Shown: in pieces, positions 5,157-31,562 of the stretch
How the letters are laid out: every line of letters starts with the position of its first letter
Position numbering within the stretch: the stretch's first letter is position 1
DNA from: Candidatus Nanosynbacter sp. BB002
GTDB lineage: Bacteria; Patescibacteriota; Saccharimonadia; Saccharimonadales; Saccharimonadaceae
Direction of reading: 5' to 3'
Assembly: GCF_037013405.1 (NCBI RefSeq)
Contig: NZ_CP146064.1
Coordinates: 480,001 to 512,000 of the forward strand
DNA: 32,000 nt
Notes under the pieces: model-generated
What the model saw: only the letters and a program-made list of their open reading frames with translations
Databases searched by the model: none
What the model was told of the DNA's origin: nothing
Position numbers and translations under genes: made by a program

Positions 5157-5942
5157 CTATACCAGTTCGCTGGCCATGTCAAGCATACCACGTAGTCCGC
5201 GCCTTCTCCGTGCCATATCGAGCAAAGCGGTCCTGCAAAGACCGGCCGTAAACCCAGTAAACGGCTGGTCAAAGAGGGTGAATATTTCGGCATACTCTTT
5301 ATTTTCCGTCACCTTAACACCCGAGAAGATATTCGCGCCCTCATTATACTCACGCCGCATATCATTGATGAGCACTCTTGACGCAAAACGCCCAATCACC
5401 CTATCAATCTCCCGCTGGATACGATTCAACTCATCCATGATGGCATAATAATTACGACTATCCTTGTCCATGCCATATTGTTCTCGCAATGATCTACCCG
5501 GGGCTCTCTCGATAACGGCGGCAGGTGGTGAATAGCCATCACCTACCAAGGCCAATACTGACGAGGTCGTGATGTCTGAATTATCCTGCTCAAGTTCTTC
5601 ACCTAACATATTCAACGTGAGCGTTTGTATCTGCGCCTCATCCTTATCCCGATGTCGCTTACTCAAATACGGAATGTCAGGACCTGGATCAATAACATAA
5701 GCATGTAATGCACCTAATCGAGCTGCGGCAATCTTATTTTGTATCACCTTTTCTCTACCCCGCCCATGATATTGCATCCAATCTGGATTTCGGCTGACCG
5801 ACGCAATAGCCGTCAGCTCCAAGGTTCGCTGAAAACCCTCATCATCAGCCAGCTCTGGACGGAATAAAACCGCAGTCACTTGATGGTTTTCCTGGTCCAT
5901 CGGCGACTTGACCGGATACTGGCGAATTTGCTCACTTTTCAC
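5157..5942 (-). CDS. hypothetical protein, no recognisable domain (261 aa)
   Basis: A long ORF with its own promoter and terminator and a GTG start at 5940-5942. I recognise no motif. Confidence 0.65.
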   Translation of the reverse strand: MKSEQIRQYPVKSPMDQENHQVTAVLFRPELADDEGFQRTLELTAIASVSRNPDWMQYHGRGREKVIQNKIAAARLGALHAYVIDPGPDIPYLSKRHRDKDEAQIQTLTLNMLGEELEQDNSDITTSSVLALVGDGYSPPAAVIERAPGRSLREQYGMDKDSRNYYAIMDELNRIQREIDRVIGRFASRVLINDMRREYNEGANIFSGVKVTENKEYAEIFTLFDQPFTGFTAGLCRTALLDMARRRRGLRGMLDMASELV

Positions 5943-26080: not shown

Positions 26081-26800
26081 CTAGTCAAGTAGGTAGCTTG
26101 AGTTGTATTTGAAGTTTGATTTTTTGATACTTGGCTTGTCATGAGCCTGCACTGCCAACGTGATAGCTAGGGCAACTGCGACAACACTGGTGATTGCGAT
26201 CAACGTGATAGCCAATGGACGTGATTTGTTGTAGCCGTTGATGATTTTACCAATGAAAAATACCACAACTGCCAATACTGCCAAGCATACCAGTGATGGC
26301 AAGAAGTTACCCAAGTACAGTGCTGTGTATACTGAACCAGCATCTGAAACGCCAATCAATAACAACGAGCTAATCAATACACTGATGAGGTTTGCGACCA
26401 GTGGCAACGCCGCCAATACGATCATGAACAAGCTACCATAGGTTGTCAGTTTGTAAGCCAATCGACCAGTGTAGCCGCTACGGTCAGCGGCAATTGCGCG
26501 TGTTACGCGGCCAAATAGGACAAATGCCAACACTGAAAATAGTACTGCCAAAATACTAACGGCCAAAATGTTTGCAGTGATCGAGCCGCTCAACATCAAA
26601 CCAAATGACATCGCTTCTTTTGCAGACCACATGCCGAACAACATTGGTACGAGTACTACACTGGTGATTGCAGCAAATGTTACTGAAACCATTGCTAATG
26701 CGTATTCAAATGTAAGCCATTTTGCTTGCGAAGCAGCGCGTGGAGCCATGTACTCAGCTTGCTCGACGACTGGAGTTTCTGTTGTTTTCAATTCTGCCAT
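26081..26800 (-). CDS. multi-pass membrane protein, unknown function
   Basis: About six hydrophobic segments. The start is set at ATG 26798-26800 (MAELKTTE), preceded by AAGGAGGAG. The track extension overlaps the uvrB 3' end. Confidence 0.7.
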   Translation of the reverse strand: MAELKTTETPVVEQAEYMAPRAASQAKWLTFEYALAMVSVTFAAITSVVLVPMLFGMWSAKEAMSFGLMLSGSITANILAVSILAVLFSVLAFVLFGRVTRAIAADRSGYTGRLAYKLTTYGSLFMIVLAALPLVANLISVLISSLLLIGVSDAGSVYTALYLGNFLPSLVCLAVLAVVVFFIGKIINGYNKSRPLAITLIAITSVVAVALAITLAVQAHDKPSIKKSNFKYNSSYLLD

Positions 26801-26828
26801 ATAATTCTCCTCCTTATTATGGTTATCT

Positions 26829-28826
26829 TTAGTGTACCATTGTTTGCTTAATTTCTGCAATCAAATCACGCAGCTCTGCGGCTTTTTCAAACTCTAGATT
26901 GGCGCTATGCAGCTCCATTTGACCGGTCAGTTCCTTGATCAGCGTTGGGTATTCGTCCTTTGGAATTTTCTTCAAATCAAGTTTTGGCTTTTTATCCGAT
27001 TCTTTTTGCGGAATGATGGAGCGCAGGCCATCGTCAATCTTCTTCTGAATGGTTTGCGGCGTGATACCGTGCTCTTCGTTATATTGCTGCTGAATTTGCC
27101 GCCGACGATTCGTCTCATCAATCGCTCGGTGCATACTGTCAGTCACATTATCGCCGTACATCAACACCCGCCCATCGACATGCCGCGCCGCCCGGCCAAT
27201 TGTCTGAATCAGTGCCTGTTCAGAGCGGAGGAAACCTTCTTTATCAGCATCCATAATCGCCACCAGACTGACTTCCGGTAGGTCCAGCCCCTCACGTAGC
27301 AAATTGATACCAACTAACACGTCATACGTTCCCAGTCGCAAATCTTTGAGAATATCGCCGCGCTCTAATGTGTCAATTTCACTGTGTAGATACGCCGTTT
27401 TCACACCATTATCGGTCAGGTAGGCACTCAGATCCTCAGCCATGCGCTTGGTCAAGGTGGTTACCAGCACGCGGTGGCCGTTGGCGATGGTCTGGCGAAT
27501 CTCCTCCATCAAATCATCAACCTGCCCTTCGGTCGGCCGCACCTCAATCGGCGGATCAAGCAGCCCCGTCGGCCGAATCAACTGCTCAGCCGGCTTTGGT
27601 GAATGAGCAATTTCATAGTCACCCGGCGTAGCCGACACATAAATCGCCTGGTGAATATGCTGATCAAATTCATCAAATCTCAGCGGGCGGTTATCCAACG
27701 CACTCGGCAAACGAAAACCATGCTCCACCAACACTTCCTTGCGCGCCCGGTCGCCGTTATACATACCGCGGACTTGCGGCAAGGTCATATGCGACTCATC
27801 GACCAGCAGCAACCAATCGTCCGGAAAATAATCAATCAAGGTCGCCGGCTGCTCGCCCGGCTCGCGGTCAGTCAGATAGCGCGAATAATTCTCGATGCCT
27901 TTAACAAAGCCAGTTTCTTTGAGCATTTCTAGGTCATATTTGGTGCGTTGACTGAGGCGCTGTGCCTCGAGTAACTTGTCGTGCGACTCAAGCCATTTGA
28001 GCCGCTCGTCAAACTCTTTTTCGATACCGATGATAGCTTTTTCAATTCGTTCACGTGGCGTCGAATAGTGGCTCGACGGGAAAATCATCAGGCTAGCTGG
28101 CTGATCCAAAATCTCGCCCGTCAGCGGATCGATTCGCGTGAGTCTCTCGACCTCATCGCCAAAAAATTCCACCCGCACCGCCGTGTCCTGCCCAGCCGGG
28201 AAAATATCGACCACGTCGCCGCGCACCCTGAAAGTGCCGCGCGCAAAATCAATGTCGTTGCGCTTGTACTGAATATCGGTCAGCAGGCGGATGAACTTAT
28301 CCTGAACCCGCCGCTCACCGACCGTCAATTGAATGGCCATATCGGCGTACGTCTCCGGTGAACCAATGCCGTAAATGCAAGACACGCTCGCCACAATGAT
28401 CACATCGCGCCGCGTTAGCAATGCCGAGGTCGCCGCATGCCGCAGCCGATCGATTTCATCATTAATCTTCGAATCTTTTTCAATGTAGGTGTCGCTACTG
28501 GCGATGTAGGCTTCCGGCTGATAATAATCAAAATAGCTAACGAAATAATGCACCTCGTTATCCGGAAAAAACTCCTTAAACTCAGAAAACAGCTGCGCCG
28601 CCAAAGTCTTATTGTGCGCCAGCACCAGCGTTGGCACATTAGCTCGGGCAATAATATTCGCCATAGTAAAGGTCTTACCTGAACCGGTCACGCCCAGCAG
28701 CGTTTGCTCGCGCTCGCCCCGCTCCAAACCATCCACCAACTGAGCAATCGCCGTTGGCTGGTCGCCGGTCGGCTGATAGTTGGAGACGAGATTAAAGGCA
28801 TTCATATCATTACTATTGTAACGCAT
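26829..28826 (-). CDS. uvrB: excinuclease ABC subunit B
   Basis: It has [14 protein letters not shown], Walker A (GVTGSGKTF), helicase motifs and a C-terminal UVR domain ([17 protein letters not shown]). The alternative start at ATG 28803-28805 ([12 protein letters not shown]) fits homologue N-termini. Confidence 0.9.
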
Positions 28827-28849
28827 CGCAATTTATATATAAAAATATT

Positions 28850-28877
28850 TTGAAAATCACCCGCAGTATGGTATGGT
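28850..28877 (+). promoter_or_regulatory. promoter (TTGAAA-16-TGgTATGGT), 6 nt upstream of the leader-peptide ATG
   Basis: The sequence reads TTGAAAatcacccgcagtaTGgTATGGTagcaatATG. Confidence 0.5.
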
Positions 28878-28883
28878 AGCAAT

Positions 28884-28940
28884 ATGACATATCGACACAA
28901 CATCGTTGTTCGTCGTCGCCGCTCTGACCCAGAGGGCTAA
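28884..28940 (+). CDS. candidate arginine leader peptide MTYRHNIVVRRRRSDPEG
   Basis: An 18-codon ORF with 5 Arg codons, four of them consecutive (CGT CGT CGC CGC at 28911-28922). It lies between a promoter and a terminator, directly upstream of argG. Confidence 0.55.
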   Translation: MTYRHNIVVRRRRSDPEG

Positions 28941-28966
28941 TTAGTCGTATAGTAAAAACCAACTAC

Positions 28967-28996
28967 AGAGCCCTCGTCCGAGCGGCTCTTTTTGTT
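28967..28996 (+). terminator. attenuator terminator upstream of argG
   Basis: AGAGCC-CTC (28967-75) pairs with GAG-(c)-GGCTCT (28980-89) around the loop GTCC. TTTTGTT follows. It ends 4 nt before the argG ORF. Confidence 0.6.
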
Positions 28997-28999
28997 ATT

Positions 29000-30277
29000 A
29001 TGGAAAGGAAGGATATGGACCACGACGCGCCCCACTACACCAAGGTTGCCAGTCACGAAGCCGTGAACGGTGAGTTCGATACGTGCCTCTTGCTCTATTC
29101 GGGAGGCCTCGACACATCCGTCATGCTCACGTGGTTACAAGAAAAATATAATTGCAAGGTCATCACCCTAACGGTCAATATCGGCCAAACGGTTGATGAT
29201 CTCGATGCCATCGCCGAAAAAGCCAAAAAACTCGGCGCCATAGAAACCATCACGGTTGACGCCCGCAACCACTTCGCCGATGAGCTGTTGTCGCTGGCCA
29301 TCAAAGCCAACGCTGACTACCAAGGCGGCTACGCCCTCTGCACGCCACTCGGGCGCATTATCATCTCGCAATTAGCCGTCGAATATGCCGAAAAGTACAA
29401 TTGCAACGTCATCGCACACGGTGCCACCGGCAAAGGCAACGACCAAGTTCGCTTCGAGACCTATATCACCACGCTCAATCCGAAACTCAAAATCTTGGCA
29501 CCAGTGCGTGAGTGGAGTATGGGCCGAGAGGAAGAGCTTGCCTATGCCAAGAAGCACAACATCCCCGTGCCACACACTCAGGAGTCACCCTACTCAACCG
29601 ATGAAAACATGTGGGGTATCACCAGTGAGGGCGGCGAGATAGAATCGCCATCACTCAAGCCAAACTACCACGCCATCCTCAATTGGTGTTCAACCATCAA
29701 ATACACGCCAGATGAAGCCGAAGATATCACCATCAAATTCATCAAAGGTGTGCCCGTTGCCGTCGACAACCGTCACTTTTCACTCCAAGCACTCATCCAG
29801 CACTGTAACCAACTCGGCCGCAAACACGGCGTCGGTGTATCGACCCTCATTGAAGATCGATTGGTTGGCCTGAAAGTGCGCGGTGTCTACGAAAACCCTG
29901 GCGCTGCCATCTTGATTGCTGCTCATCAAAAGCTTGAGCAATTGGTGTCAACTCGTGTTGAAAATGAACTCAAAGCCGAAATGGACAAAAAATGGGCCTA
30001 CCTCACCTACGCGGCTCAGTGGTACGAGCCAGCCGTCCATCACATTAACGCCTACATTGATGATCAGAACCAAAAAGTCACCGGCACAGTGACGGTCCGC
30101 CTATACAAAGGTACCATCACCGTCGTCAGCGTGGACTCACCGCATTCGTTGTTTGATATCAATCTTGCAACGTTTGATTCCAACACCGCATTCAACCAGA
30201 ATTCGTCCGCCGGATTCATTGAATTATATTCATTAAGTCAGCGAACAGCTGAAGGAGCATACTCATATGGCAAATAA
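29000..30277 (+). CDS. argG: argininosuccinate synthase
   Basis: It has the LLLYSGGLDTSV ATP-binding motif and is 425 aa. The second ATG at 29015, preceded by AAGGAAGGA, is an alternative start. Confidence 0.9.
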   Translation: MERKDMDHDAPHYTKVASHEAVNGEFDTCLLLYSGGLDTSVMLTWLQEKYNCKVITLTVNIGQTVDDLDAIAEKAKKLGAIETITVDARNHFADELLSLAIKANADYQGGYALCTPLGRIIISQLAVEYAEKYNCNVIAHGATGKGNDQVRFETYITTLNPKLKILAPVREWSMGREEELAYAKKHNIPVPHTQESPYSTDENMWGITSEGGEIESPSLKPNYHAILNWCSTIKYTPDEAEDITIKFIKGVPVAVDNRHFSLQALIQHCNQLGRKHGVGVSTLIEDRLVGLKVRGVYENPGAAILIAAHQKLEQLVSTRVENELKAEMDKKWAYLTYAAQWYEPAVHHINAYIDDQNQKVTGTVTVRLYKGTITVVSVDSPHSLFDINLATFDSNTAFNQNSSAGFIELYSLSQRTAEGAYSYGK

Positions 30278-31463
30278 ACTATGGCAATCAACCGCAACCG
30301 GCTCACTCCACCCACTAGTCGAGTCATACACCGTTGGCGACGACCAAGTGCTGGACCAACATTTGCTGGGGCATGATATCACCGCCACTAAAGCGCACGC
30401 TCACATGCTAGAAAAAATTGGCGTATTGACCAGCGACGAGTATCAACAATTAGCAGCCGCCTTGGACGAGCTGCTGAACGAGTGGAAAACTGGTGCCTTC
30501 ACCCTCACCAGCGAGCACGAAGATGGCCACACCGCCATTGAGCTGTATCTGACAGAAAAGCTCGGCCCCATCGGCAAAAAGGTTCACACTGGCCGAAGCC
30601 GCAATGACCAAGCCTTGGTGATGATGCGCTTGTTCATCAAAACAGAGCTTGAAGCAGTAGCCGAAAAGCTGGAAGCAGTCGCCCAGGCCTATGCTGGCAA
30701 AATCACTGCCATCGGCCAGACCGAAATGCCTGGCTACACCCACACCCAAAAAGCCATGCCAACCACAGTCAGCATGTGGCTTGGTTCCTACCACGATGCG
30801 TTCAATGACCTCCGACAACTGGTGGCACACAGCATCGCCGCCATCGACCAAAATCCACTGGGTAGCGCCGCTGGCTTTGGCGTTACGCTGCCACTTGACC
30901 GCCAGATGACGACCAGTGAACTGGGCTTTGCCAAAGTGCAAGAAAACCCAATGTACTGTGGTCTGTCACGCGGCGTGTTTGAACTAATTGCCGTGCAAGC
31001 GCTCAACCCAATCATGGTCTTTGCTGGTAAATTTGCCGAAGACATGTTGCTATTTACTTCGCAGGAGTTTAATTATTTCAAACTGCCCGTCACCATGACC
31101 ACCGGCTCGTCCATCATGCCACACAAACGCAACTACGACGTCTTTGAGATTATGCGCGCTACTGCCCACGCTTATCCAAATTATGCTCTGCAGCTCCAAG
31201 CCATTTCGACAGGTGCCGGTAGCGGCTACCACCGTGATTTGCAGTTGACCAAAAAAATCACCATGGACGCCTTTACGTCGGCACTCGACACACTGGAAGT
31301 TCTGGCGCTCTGTGTCAGCGAGCTGGAAGCCAACACTGACCGATTGGCCGAGGCGATGACCGATGAACTTTACACCGTTGCCAAAATCAACGAATTGGTG
31401 GAAAAAGGTGTGCCATTCCGCGACGCTTACCAGAAGGTTAAGCAATCATTTCTGGGTGAATAA
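30267..31463 (+). CDS. argH: argininosuccinate lyase (short form, 398 aa)
   Basis: It has GRSRNDQ and GSSIMPHKRNYD (fumarate-lyase signature). It overlaps argG by 11 nt. Confidence 0.85.
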   Translation: MANKLWQSTATGSLHPLVESYTVGDDQVLDQHLLGHDITATKAHAHMLEKIGVLTSDEYQQLAAALDELLNEWKTGAFTLTSEHEDGHTAIELYLTEKLGPIGKKVHTGRSRNDQALVMMRLFIKTELEAVAEKLEAVAQAYAGKITAIGQTEMPGYTHTQKAMPTTVSMWLGSYHDAFNDLRQLVAHSIAAIDQNPLGSAAGFGVTLPLDRQMTTSELGFAKVQENPMYCGLSRGVFELIAVQALNPIMVFAGKFAEDMLLFTSQEFNYFKLPVTMTTGSSIMPHKRNYDVFEIMRATAHAYPNYALQLQAISTGAGSGYHRDLQLTKKITMDAFTSALDTLEVLALCVSELEANTDRLAEAMTDELYTVAKINELVEKGVPFRDAYQKVKQSFLGE

Positions 31464-31494: not shown

Positions 31495-31524
31495 TTGACA
31501 AACACAAGCTTTTTGTGCTATAAT
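31495..31524 (+). promoter_or_regulatory. near-consensus promoter (TTGACA-18-TGcTATAAT) for the LOG-family gene
   Basis: The sequence reads TTGACAaacacaagctttttgTGcTATAAT. A leader of about 32 nt follows before ATG 31563. Confidence 0.6.
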
Positions 31525-31562
31525 CAAAAGATACGTGAATTAAAACATAAAAAGGCAGAAAA

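Follow-up and report, generated by a model that had tools for sequence, protein, structure and literature searches.

Leader-peptide attenuation has been described for histidine, tryptophan, leucine, threonine, phenylalanine, isoleucine/valine and, lately, cysteine, and arginine genes are seen as the domain of the repressor ArgR and, in Firmicutes, also of T-boxes. We analyzed a stretch of 32,000 nucleotides (nt) from the saccharibacterium Candidatus Nanosynbacter sp. BB002 (contig NZ_CP146064.1, positions 480,001 to 512,000 of the forward strand). The whole stretch is called the window, and positions are counted from its first letter. In the window a short open reading frame (ORF) containing four consecutive Arg codons, followed by a predicted intrinsic terminator, precedes argG-argH. 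Sequence comparisons and folding models make it probable (about 0.85) that this element controls argG-argH by ribosome-mediated transcription attenuation, with a leader peptide whose translation reports the charging level of tRNA-Arg. An attenuator with an Arg run would, if this is true, fill a gap in the amino-acid range of leader-peptide attenuation.

A preliminary description of the locus had held that no bacterial Arg-codon attenuator was described. This stands for attenuators of the terminator type that control arg genes: our literature searches, in which subscription journals were thinly covered so that earlier work is possible, turned up none that combines an Arg run with a terminator. 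It does not stand for arginine sensing as such. The ORF orf34 of Salmonella speF senses arginine; it is a conserved ORF of 34 codons, is led by a Shine-Dalgarno sequence (SD), and contains two consecutive Arg codons (Ben-Zvi et al. 2019, PMC6386406). There, as is proposed here, the progress of the ribosome over consecutive Arg codons depends on arginine and refolds the downstream mRNA. However, the output of orf34 consists of RNase G sensitivity, Rho-dependent termination and unmasking of the ribosome-binding site, and its target is ornithine decarboxylase (PMC6386406), whereas the element described here has an intrinsic terminator and antiterminator and precedes genes for arginine synthesis, not a polyamine gene.

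Leaderless polycysteine ORFs are reported from mycobacteria (bioRxiv 10.1101/834739; PMC4633059), and leaderless leader peptides are predicted in Deinococcus deserti (PMC4007540). The mRNA in these cases starts, as proposed here, at the AUG of a short ORF rich in the cognate residue, located before biosynthetic or tRNA-synthetase genes. The papers describe cysteine-rich ORFs in other phyla, whereas a clear intrinsic terminator and antiterminator are present here; the main texts of PMC4007540 and PMC4633059 do not mention arginine. RNA-level control of arginine genes has been stated to be by T-boxes (PMC1262725). T-boxes, ArgR and AhrC serve the same physiological purpose as the proposed attenuator, and T-boxes also read tRNA-Arg charging through a terminator and antiterminator; here the sensor would be a ribosome translating Arg codons, with neither a direct contact between tRNA and leader RNA nor a repressor protein involved. 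In fungi, the upstream ORF of arg-2/CPA1, which encodes the arginine attenuator peptide (AAP), likewise couples arginine supply to an arginine-pathway gene. Unlike the present element, in which a codon run would act on transcription termination, AAP has a conserved peptide sequence, stalls ribosomes in response to free arginine and blocks scanning in eukaryotes.

The element has most in common with the enterobacterial attenuators. As in trpL, hisL, thrL, leuL, pheL and ilvL, tandem codons for the end product lie in a short ORF, and a terminator lies before the first gene. As in these, an antiterminator excludes the terminator, and the codons are placed so that a stalled ribosome would favor the antiterminator. 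The differences are the amino acid (arginine), the host (a saccharibacterium) and an apparently leaderless, rather than SD-led, ORF. The proposed mechanism is itself classical; the specificity for Arg, the phylum Saccharibacteria within the Candidate Phyla Radiation (CPR), and the apparently leaderless loading would be new. The features of the locus are as follows.

28850 to 28855, plus strand: -35 element TTGAAA of the leader promoter, from a consensus scan; 16-nt spacer to the -10 element; position kept in the oral clade.
28869 to 28877, plus strand: extended -10 element TGgTATGGT, hexamer at 28872-28877; the consensus scan lists the site with the TG.
28884 to 28940, plus strand: leader ORF of 18 codons plus stop (TAA, 28938-40), MTYRHNIVVRRRRSDPEG, read from the sequence and its relatives.
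28911 to 28922, plus strand: run of four Arg codons, CGT CGT CGC CGC, putatively regulatory, read from the sequence.
28922 to 28934, plus strand: small hairpin of segments 1 and 2, CUCUG-ACC-CAGAG, a weak helix sharing nucleotides with the fourth Arg codon and with the beginning of segment 2.
28932 to 28938, plus strand: 5' arm of the antiterminator (segment 2), GAGGGCT, complementary to AGCCCTC at 28969-75.
28944 to 28949, plus strand: GTCGTA block just 3' of the leader stop, invariant in the alignment of relatives.
28950 to 28966, plus strand: variable spacer, the loop of the antiterminator, from the same alignment.
28967 to 28989, plus strand: terminator hairpin (segments 3 and 4), AGAGCCCTC-GTCC-GAGCGGCTCT, -12.7 kcal/mol.
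28990 to 28996, plus strand: U-tract TTTTGTT, predicted 3' end of an attenuated RNA of about 107-113 nt.
29005 to 29012, plus strand: SD of argG, AAGGAAGG, conserved as GAAAGGAAGG before the ATG at 29015.
29015 to 30277, plus strand: argG, argininosuccinate synthase, the first gene under the proposed control (NCBIfam NF001770, TIGR00032).
30267 to 31463, plus strand: argH, argininosuccinate lyase, short form of 398 amino acids (aa) (NCBIfam TIGR00838), overlapping argG by 11 nt.

Most of this anatomy had been proposed from the letters alone, and the promoter with the 18-codon ORF 6 nt behind it, the four Arg codons, the pairing of 28932-38 with 28969-75, and the terminator with its U-tract were all found where they had been placed. 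Two helices needed redrawing. A weak helix between segments 1 and 2 exists; however, it is better drawn as CUCUG (28922-26) with CAGAG (28930-34), the region in which the alignment to the Rfam Phe_leader family also places a hairpin, and its role in the switch is presumed. The 7-bp antiterminator is present, but in untranslated RNA the minimum free energy (MFE) fold extends it by pairing 28918-24 with 28980-86, so that both arms of the terminator would be sequestered. The 123-nt leader folds at an MFE of -40 kcal/mol (z = -4.55; none of 200 dinucleotide shuffles folded as well). The duplex between segment 2 and the 5' arm of the terminator reaches -13.3 kcal/mol versus -6.1 +/- 1.8 for shuffled sequences (z = -4.0, p = 0.003). 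The two codons used in the run, CGT and CGC, make up 60% of the Arg codons across the genes of the window.

In the scheme that we infer from the sequence features, their conservation and the predicted folds, transcription would start at or beside A28884, the mRNA would begin with the AUG of the 18-codon ORF, and a 70S ribosome would load on it without an SD. With ample Arg-tRNA, the ribosome would pass the Arg codons, reach the stop codon at 28938-40, and cover or unwind GAGGGCU (28932-38). The terminator at 28967-89 would then form with its U-tract, and transcription would end at about 28990-96, giving an RNA of about 110 nt. When Arg-tRNA is scarce, the ribosome would stall with an Arg codon in the A site, and its front edge, about 10-12 nt downstream, would stop short of GAGGGCU. 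This segment would be free to pair with AGCCCUC (28969-75) as soon as the latter is made, before the 3' arm of the terminator exists, and RNA polymerase would continue into argG-argH. In the clade of the window an untranslated leader is also predicted to form the antiterminator, so the default state would be ON.

We compared the leader with those of relatives, as the preliminary description had proposed; ORFs with Arg runs and alternative helices do recur before argG. A genome scan with ArgG found proteins 96-100% identical to it in more than 60 species-level genomes of oral Saccharibacteria. This oral clade has 38 distinct leader sequences, 34 of which were aligned with those of the loci L046 and L050, giving 36 sequences. 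There is little or no variation in the Arg run, the two helices and the U-tract. The seven pairs of the antiterminator (28932-38 with 28969-75) do not vary and are paired in 100% of the sequences, as are the nine pairs of the terminator, in which the one double change, G-C to A-U, occurs in L050. In contrast, the spacer at 28950-66 contains many substitutions, even among near-identical genomes, and indels of 1-10 nt past the leader stop, several of which are not multiples of three. Indels within the leader ORF are 6 or 9 nt long and keep the frame, and the changes in Arg codons between CGT and CGC are synonymous (L025 and L045, for example, differ only synonymously). In-frame indels and synonymous Arg changes are signs of translation of the leader ORF.

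None of the 36 aligned leaders, not even those of L046 and L050, departs from the GTCGTA block (28944-49), while the neighboring spacer varies. It lies 4-9 nt past the leader stop and 10-13 nt past the CUCUG/CAGAG hairpin, and inspection by eye revealed no convincing pairing partner for it. It could be a hairpin-dependent pause site for RNA polymerase, or it could be part of a small GGCU/AGUC hairpin that appears in the Phe_leader alignment.

In more distant, named genomes of Saccharibacteria, leaders precede argG-argH at L046 (MTTTHNVIRRRRSLAEG; ArgG identity 84%), L050 (MTYRISTSVIRRRSLS; 77%), L054 (MRFLQYSVTLRRSSRTNGSCPCNC; 65%) and L058 (MSNYSIQANTRRRSPRISGGCPCNC; 62%). A metagenome scan added twelve leader types directly 5' of argG, among them L077, L081, L092, L102, L124 and L150; samples of the metagenomic leaders are MKRTSQNLSLRRRNYHSWKLRRF, MNTDLIKFAVRRRNPSSSETRWR, MNIKNFVFVANRRRSR and MTFNPAHICIRRRTASLLRLFASA. 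A blind scan of both strands of all fetched DNA (1.68 Mb) for an ATG-initiated ORF with three consecutive Arg codons followed by a terminator found the known leaders again, along with six new types at a total of eight loci, since L120 has the same leader as L086 and the leader of L147 is nearly identical to that of L079. Five of the new types (L084, L086, L088, L089 and L091; e.g., MKFNAHTTTLSLRRRRPWGV) precede a gene for ornithine carbamoyltransferase (Pfam OTCace, argF) followed by argG-argH. The sixth, L079/L147, precedes an unknown gene of 143 aa followed by argG-argH. The scan matched elsewhere about five times in the 1.68 Mb, and those matches that were checked were false positives. A site on the minus strand of the window at 5216 had been considered as a second Arg leader and was rejected, being the C-terminal end of a 261-aa ORF (5157-5942) with its own terminator.

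The result is 24 distinct types of leader ORF with an Arg run, each with an intrinsic terminator 3' of the ORF (the U-tract is weak in two), located before argG-argH, argF-argG-argH, or the unknown gene plus argG-argH. The Arg run, of 2-5 codons, is kept in all 24. Most types use CGN codons, L092 and L102 use AGA/AGG, and L142 has a mixture; these switches between codon families indicate that the amino acid is what is conserved. The sequences of the peptides and helices differ among lineages, and outside the Arg run no peptide sequence is shared. By eye, L076, L102 and L124 have the textbook arrangement of 1:2, 2:3 and 3:4 helices. Some environmental leaders share CTTG(T/A)(A/G)ATTGC just past the antiterminator arm (L054, 150-174; L058, 2356-2380; L080, 2390-2420). 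In two of these leaders it is read as the peptide end CPCNC, and in L080 an earlier stop codon leaves it untranslated, so that its conservation looks to be at the RNA level. The 143-aa gene (L079, 950-1381; L147, 2011-2442) has no Pfam match and could encode an uncharacterized arginine-pathway or regulatory protein.

For an enrichment test we used 71 non-identical upstream regions (-260 to -21) and counted those with an ATG ORF, 8-35 codons long, in which three or more Arg codons follow one another. Fifteen of the 71 contained one, as did one reverse complement. Dinucleotide shuffles gave 0.59 +/- 0.78 such regions, with a maximum of 4 in 200; because the 71 loci are related, this comparison does not give a formal probability, though the leaders are mostly mutually unalignable. 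No other amino acid reached more than two loci in the same test. These counts bear on the possibility that the arrangement is coincidence or mere structure, that is, a constitutive terminator or insulator, or an mRNA-stabilizing hairpin, beside a chance ORF. Intergenic DNA often contains hairpins and short ORFs, and a simple terminator scan missed the hairpin of the window, on account of a bulge. However, 15 of 71 regions have such an ORF against an expectation of 0.6, and the enrichment is specific to Arg. The geometry described below is conserved, the antiterminator complementarity is above chance, invariant helices stand beside a fast-changing spacer, and the element precedes three different first genes of arg operons. 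We regard coincidence as highly improbable.

Searches of databases returned no known family. No part of the window matched Rfam at gathering thresholds. A search at E <= 10 returned Phe_leader (RF01859; 29.4 bits versus 55, E = 0.0034), the best sub-threshold match, and a chance-level match to MicX only. The resemblance to Phe_leader is weak and structural; it reflects architecture, not membership, and there is no homology at threshold to the Rfam leader families. The T-box covariance model had no match in 28780-29060 even at E <= 10. No ARG box (TNTGAATWWWWATTCANW) with up to three mismatches was found in 28827-28999, and the remainder of the window has five matches, about as many as chance predicts (4.4 expected). 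The leader peptides did not match NCBIfam models, and an exact look-up among 15 billion proteins did not contain them. The element has the structure of a functional class and belongs to no curated sequence family. That structure consists of an end-product codon run before a biosynthetic operon, an intrinsic terminator, a predicted mutually exclusive antiterminator, and a codon placement that fits a stalled ribosome in the models.

A switch at the level of untranslated RNA (a riboswitch, a target of an RNA-binding protein, or a T-box-like element), in which the short ORF and its Arg codons would be incidental, could also be considered. The RNA is strongly structured, the invariant GTCGTA block has no assigned role, and Arg-specific T-boxes are the known form of RNA-level control of arg genes (PMC1262725). 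Yet besides the absence of an Rfam match, the 24 leader types have no nucleotide motif in common, whereas the in-frame Arg run is common to all. The switch from CGN to AGA codons still encodes Arg, indels in the ORF keep the frame, and the start codon is always at promoter distance. An untranslated switch thus appears very unlikely, if not quite so improbable as coincidence.

The attenuator reading makes specific demands on the placement of the Arg codons. Measured from the first nucleotide of the first Arg codon, the median distance to the antiterminator arm is 21 nt (19-24 nt in 17 of 24 leaders, 21 nt in the window); from the first nucleotide of the last Arg codon it is 15 nt. A ribosome stalled on the Arg run would thus have its front edge immediately before the arm. 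Complementarity between the post-Arg segment and the 5' arm of the terminator has a mean z of -2.5 relative to shuffled sequences, and 13 of the 24 leaders are below -2.

To represent the ribosome we masked 15 nt on the 5' side and about 10 nt on the 3' side, counted from the first A-site nucleotide, and folded the remaining RNA. Escherichia coli thrL, trpL, hisL and leuL (from NC_000913) were used as positive controls. At equilibrium, the probability of the terminator switches cleanly in about 11 of 18 leaders but only in part in the leader of the window; in L054, L077, L081, L092, L124 and L150 it falls from above 0.9 to about 0 exactly at the Arg codons. The proven E. coli attenuators, however, gave about 0.95 at nearly every ribosome position in the same model, and the equilibrium probability was therefore rejected as a test. 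Antitermination is kinetic, and equilibrium cannot show it.

As a kinetic proxy, the transcript was cut before the 3' arm of the terminator, and the pairing of the 5' arm was scored. When an Arg codon of the run occupies the A site, the 5' arm is paired at 0.7-1.0 in 19 of 24 leaders. In 21 of the 24, pairing falls below half within 1-6 codons (median 3) past the last Arg. In the window it is 0.78 for a ribosome at the Arg codons and 0.14 for one at the stop codon, which agrees with the contrast between a stalled ribosome and one at the stop codon that had been proposed for this leader. The controls thrL (0.9 to 0.2) and trpL (0.6-0.7 to 0.1) behave alike, and the window element resembles them; hisL and leuL discriminate less. 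When no ribosome is present, the leaders are predicted to follow two designs. In default-OFF designs the untranslated RNA forms the 1:2 helix and then the terminator (e.g., L076, L092, L093, L102 and L124), as in the classical four-segment arrangement. In default-ON designs it forms the antiterminator (e.g., the window, L046, L050, L054, L058, L077 and L080). The leaders of the window clade would therefore default to read-through, unlike trp, which defaults to termination.

The same switch could be driven by the nascent peptide instead, with the Arg run acting either through constitutive polybasic slowing or through the sensing of free arginine as in AAP. Ribosomes can be slowed by stretches of basic residues, nascent peptides such as fungal AAP and bacterial SpeFL can sense small molecules, and additional Arg residues are scattered past the run in L054, L058 and L077. 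Arrest peptides of the AAP, SpeFL or TnaC type, however, need a conserved peptide sequence, and here only the Arg run is common across lineages. A constitutive stall would cause constitutive read-through and make the terminator pointless, and sensing of free arginine would invert the logic, since a stall at high arginine would switch synthesis on. The run length of 2-5 codons and the fixed distance to the antiterminator arm fit stalling in the A site. Although it comes ahead of the other alternatives, control by the nascent peptide is improbable in our judgment.

Stalling of a ribosome on the Arg codons presupposes that the ORF is translated, and the promoter suggests how. In the window and in eleven diverged relatives, the leader ATG follows a sigma-70-like -10 element at a distance of 6-9 nt (6 nt in the window), and no SD precedes this ATG in any of the twelve; argG of the oral clade, in contrast, has a strong SD. 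The promoter spacing and the lack of an SD support, and do not prove, the earlier suggestion that the ORF is translated from a leaderless mRNA, the start of which is predicted at or next to A28884. The -35 element is good or perfect in about 8 of 12 (perfect TTGACA in L046, L076, L081, L093 and L124; TTGACC in L050) and weak, with 3 of 6 positions, in L080, L094 and L150. No clear promoter was seen for the argF-type leaders.

The terminator had been described as ending 4 nt before argG, a distance that did not hold. The start listed for argG, ATG 29000, is ATA in most relatives, while ATG 29015 is conserved as a start. The true start is most likely ATG 29015, behind the SD AAGGAAGG, 25 nt from the terminator stem. 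Upstream, uvrB (26829-28826) is transcribed divergently from the leader and argG-argH; the terminator thus lies in a divergent promoter region and is not that of an upstream gene. Alternatively, the short ORF might encode a functional small cationic peptide, with the hairpin ending its own transcription unit. Leader peptides can act in trans, as does peTrpL of Sinorhizobium (PMC7298713). Against this, the peptide is not conserved beyond the Arg run, the protein collections mentioned above do not include it, and no separate argG promoter lies between the terminator and the SD, so that argG depends on read-through. Of the alternatives considered, a cationic peptide has the least to recommend it and is hardly credible.

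Several observations weigh against attenuation by Arg codons. The evidence is wholly in silico. In the equilibrium fold of the window, the terminator remains at 0.74-0.88 with the A site on Arg codons 2-4; in view of the E. coli controls, we ascribe this to a limit of the model rather than count it as evidence against the switch. Four of the five argF-type leaders are weaker in the kinetic proxy, at 0.35-0.45 on the Arg run, falling to 0.05-0.28. The element is absent from L061 (ArgG identity 66%) and from many metagenomic loci, and the metagenomic contigs carry no taxonomic assignment. In one oral genome (L036, 2331-2520), CGT CGC TGC CGC encodes RRCR in place of RRRR, a Cys interrupting the run. 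The helices of the oral clade are invariant, and covariation is thus almost absent from the alignment and uninformative; structural support rests on the independent folds of the diverged leaders. A mid-helix of the MFE fold, GAC:GUC, was paired in 64% of the oral-clade alignment and was dropped. Finally, L001, whose ArgG is 100% identical, lacks 5 nt of the promoter spacer. In L001 (2360-2385, compared with 28862-28883 of the window), one tandem copy of TATGG is missing (GTATGGTATGGT versus GTATGGT), which leaves 11 nt between TTGAAA and the -10 element; the assembly may have collapsed the repeat, or the variant may be real and weaken the promoter.

With these points included, the conservation, the Arg-only enrichment, the geometry and the mask folds support, in silico, the original proposal of an Arg-codon attenuator of argG-argH. 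We further think there is a somewhat better than even chance that the leaders make up an undescribed family of leaderless Arg-codon attenuators across the Saccharibacteria. They would control argF, argG and argH, which make arginine from ornithine or citrulline, in default-OFF (four-segment) and default-ON (three-segment) forms. On the same footing, this would be the first arginine-specific classical attenuator and, as far as the literature was searched, the first amino-acid-responsive cis-regulatory switch in the CPR.

By themselves, argG and argH provide arginine from citrulline and aspartate. If the attenuator operates as proposed, strains with argG-argH are predicted to keep this salvage of citrulline into arginine off until the charging of tRNA-Arg drops. 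Saccharibacteria have tiny genomes, and a switch that is coupled to translation and requires no regulator of its own would be well suited to them. The 24 diverged leaders offer a natural series for leaderless translation coupled to transcription, and they supply an annotation rule for a small ORF that is otherwise unannotated. Arginine is central in the biology of oral TM7, through the arginine deiminase system and cross-talk with the host (PMC12815258). argG is reported absent from the type strain TM7x (PMC12815258), and argG/argH have been noted as a variable trait within the Saccharimonadia (bioRxiv 10.64898/2026.09.16.751625).

The assignments of both genes are above the NCBIfam cutoffs: ArgG scores 483 bits against NF001770 (cutoff 334) and 446 bits against TIGR00032 (cutoff 268), and ArgH scores 292 bits against TIGR00838 (cutoff 279.5). 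The ArgH of the window covers positions 1-386 of the 455 in TIGR00838, the usual C-terminal part being missing. This short form, of 398-408 aa, is kept in the Saccharibacteria L002, L046, L050, L058 and L061, and the ArgH of the argF-type loci has 427-433 aa. In a pattern scan, the nearest ArgG sequences outside the Saccharibacteria were from the DPANN archaea Iainarchaeum and Micrarchaeota, at 48-50% identity (L064-L066 and L072), which may hint that argG is shared or transferred among ultrasmall episymbionts.

No terminator was detected after argH in the window. A perfect consensus promoter (TTGACA-18 nt-TATAAT with an upstream TG) lies at 31495-31524, 32 nt past argH; an SD and an ATG near 31562 come next, and the gene opened there leaves the window. 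Downstream of uvrB and overlapping it, 26081-26860 on the minus strand encodes a 259-aa protein without a Pfam match. This gene ends in a strong intrinsic terminator (-23.5 kcal/mol), and similar hairpins are found at two more operon ends in the window, which suggests that the organism uses intrinsic terminators.

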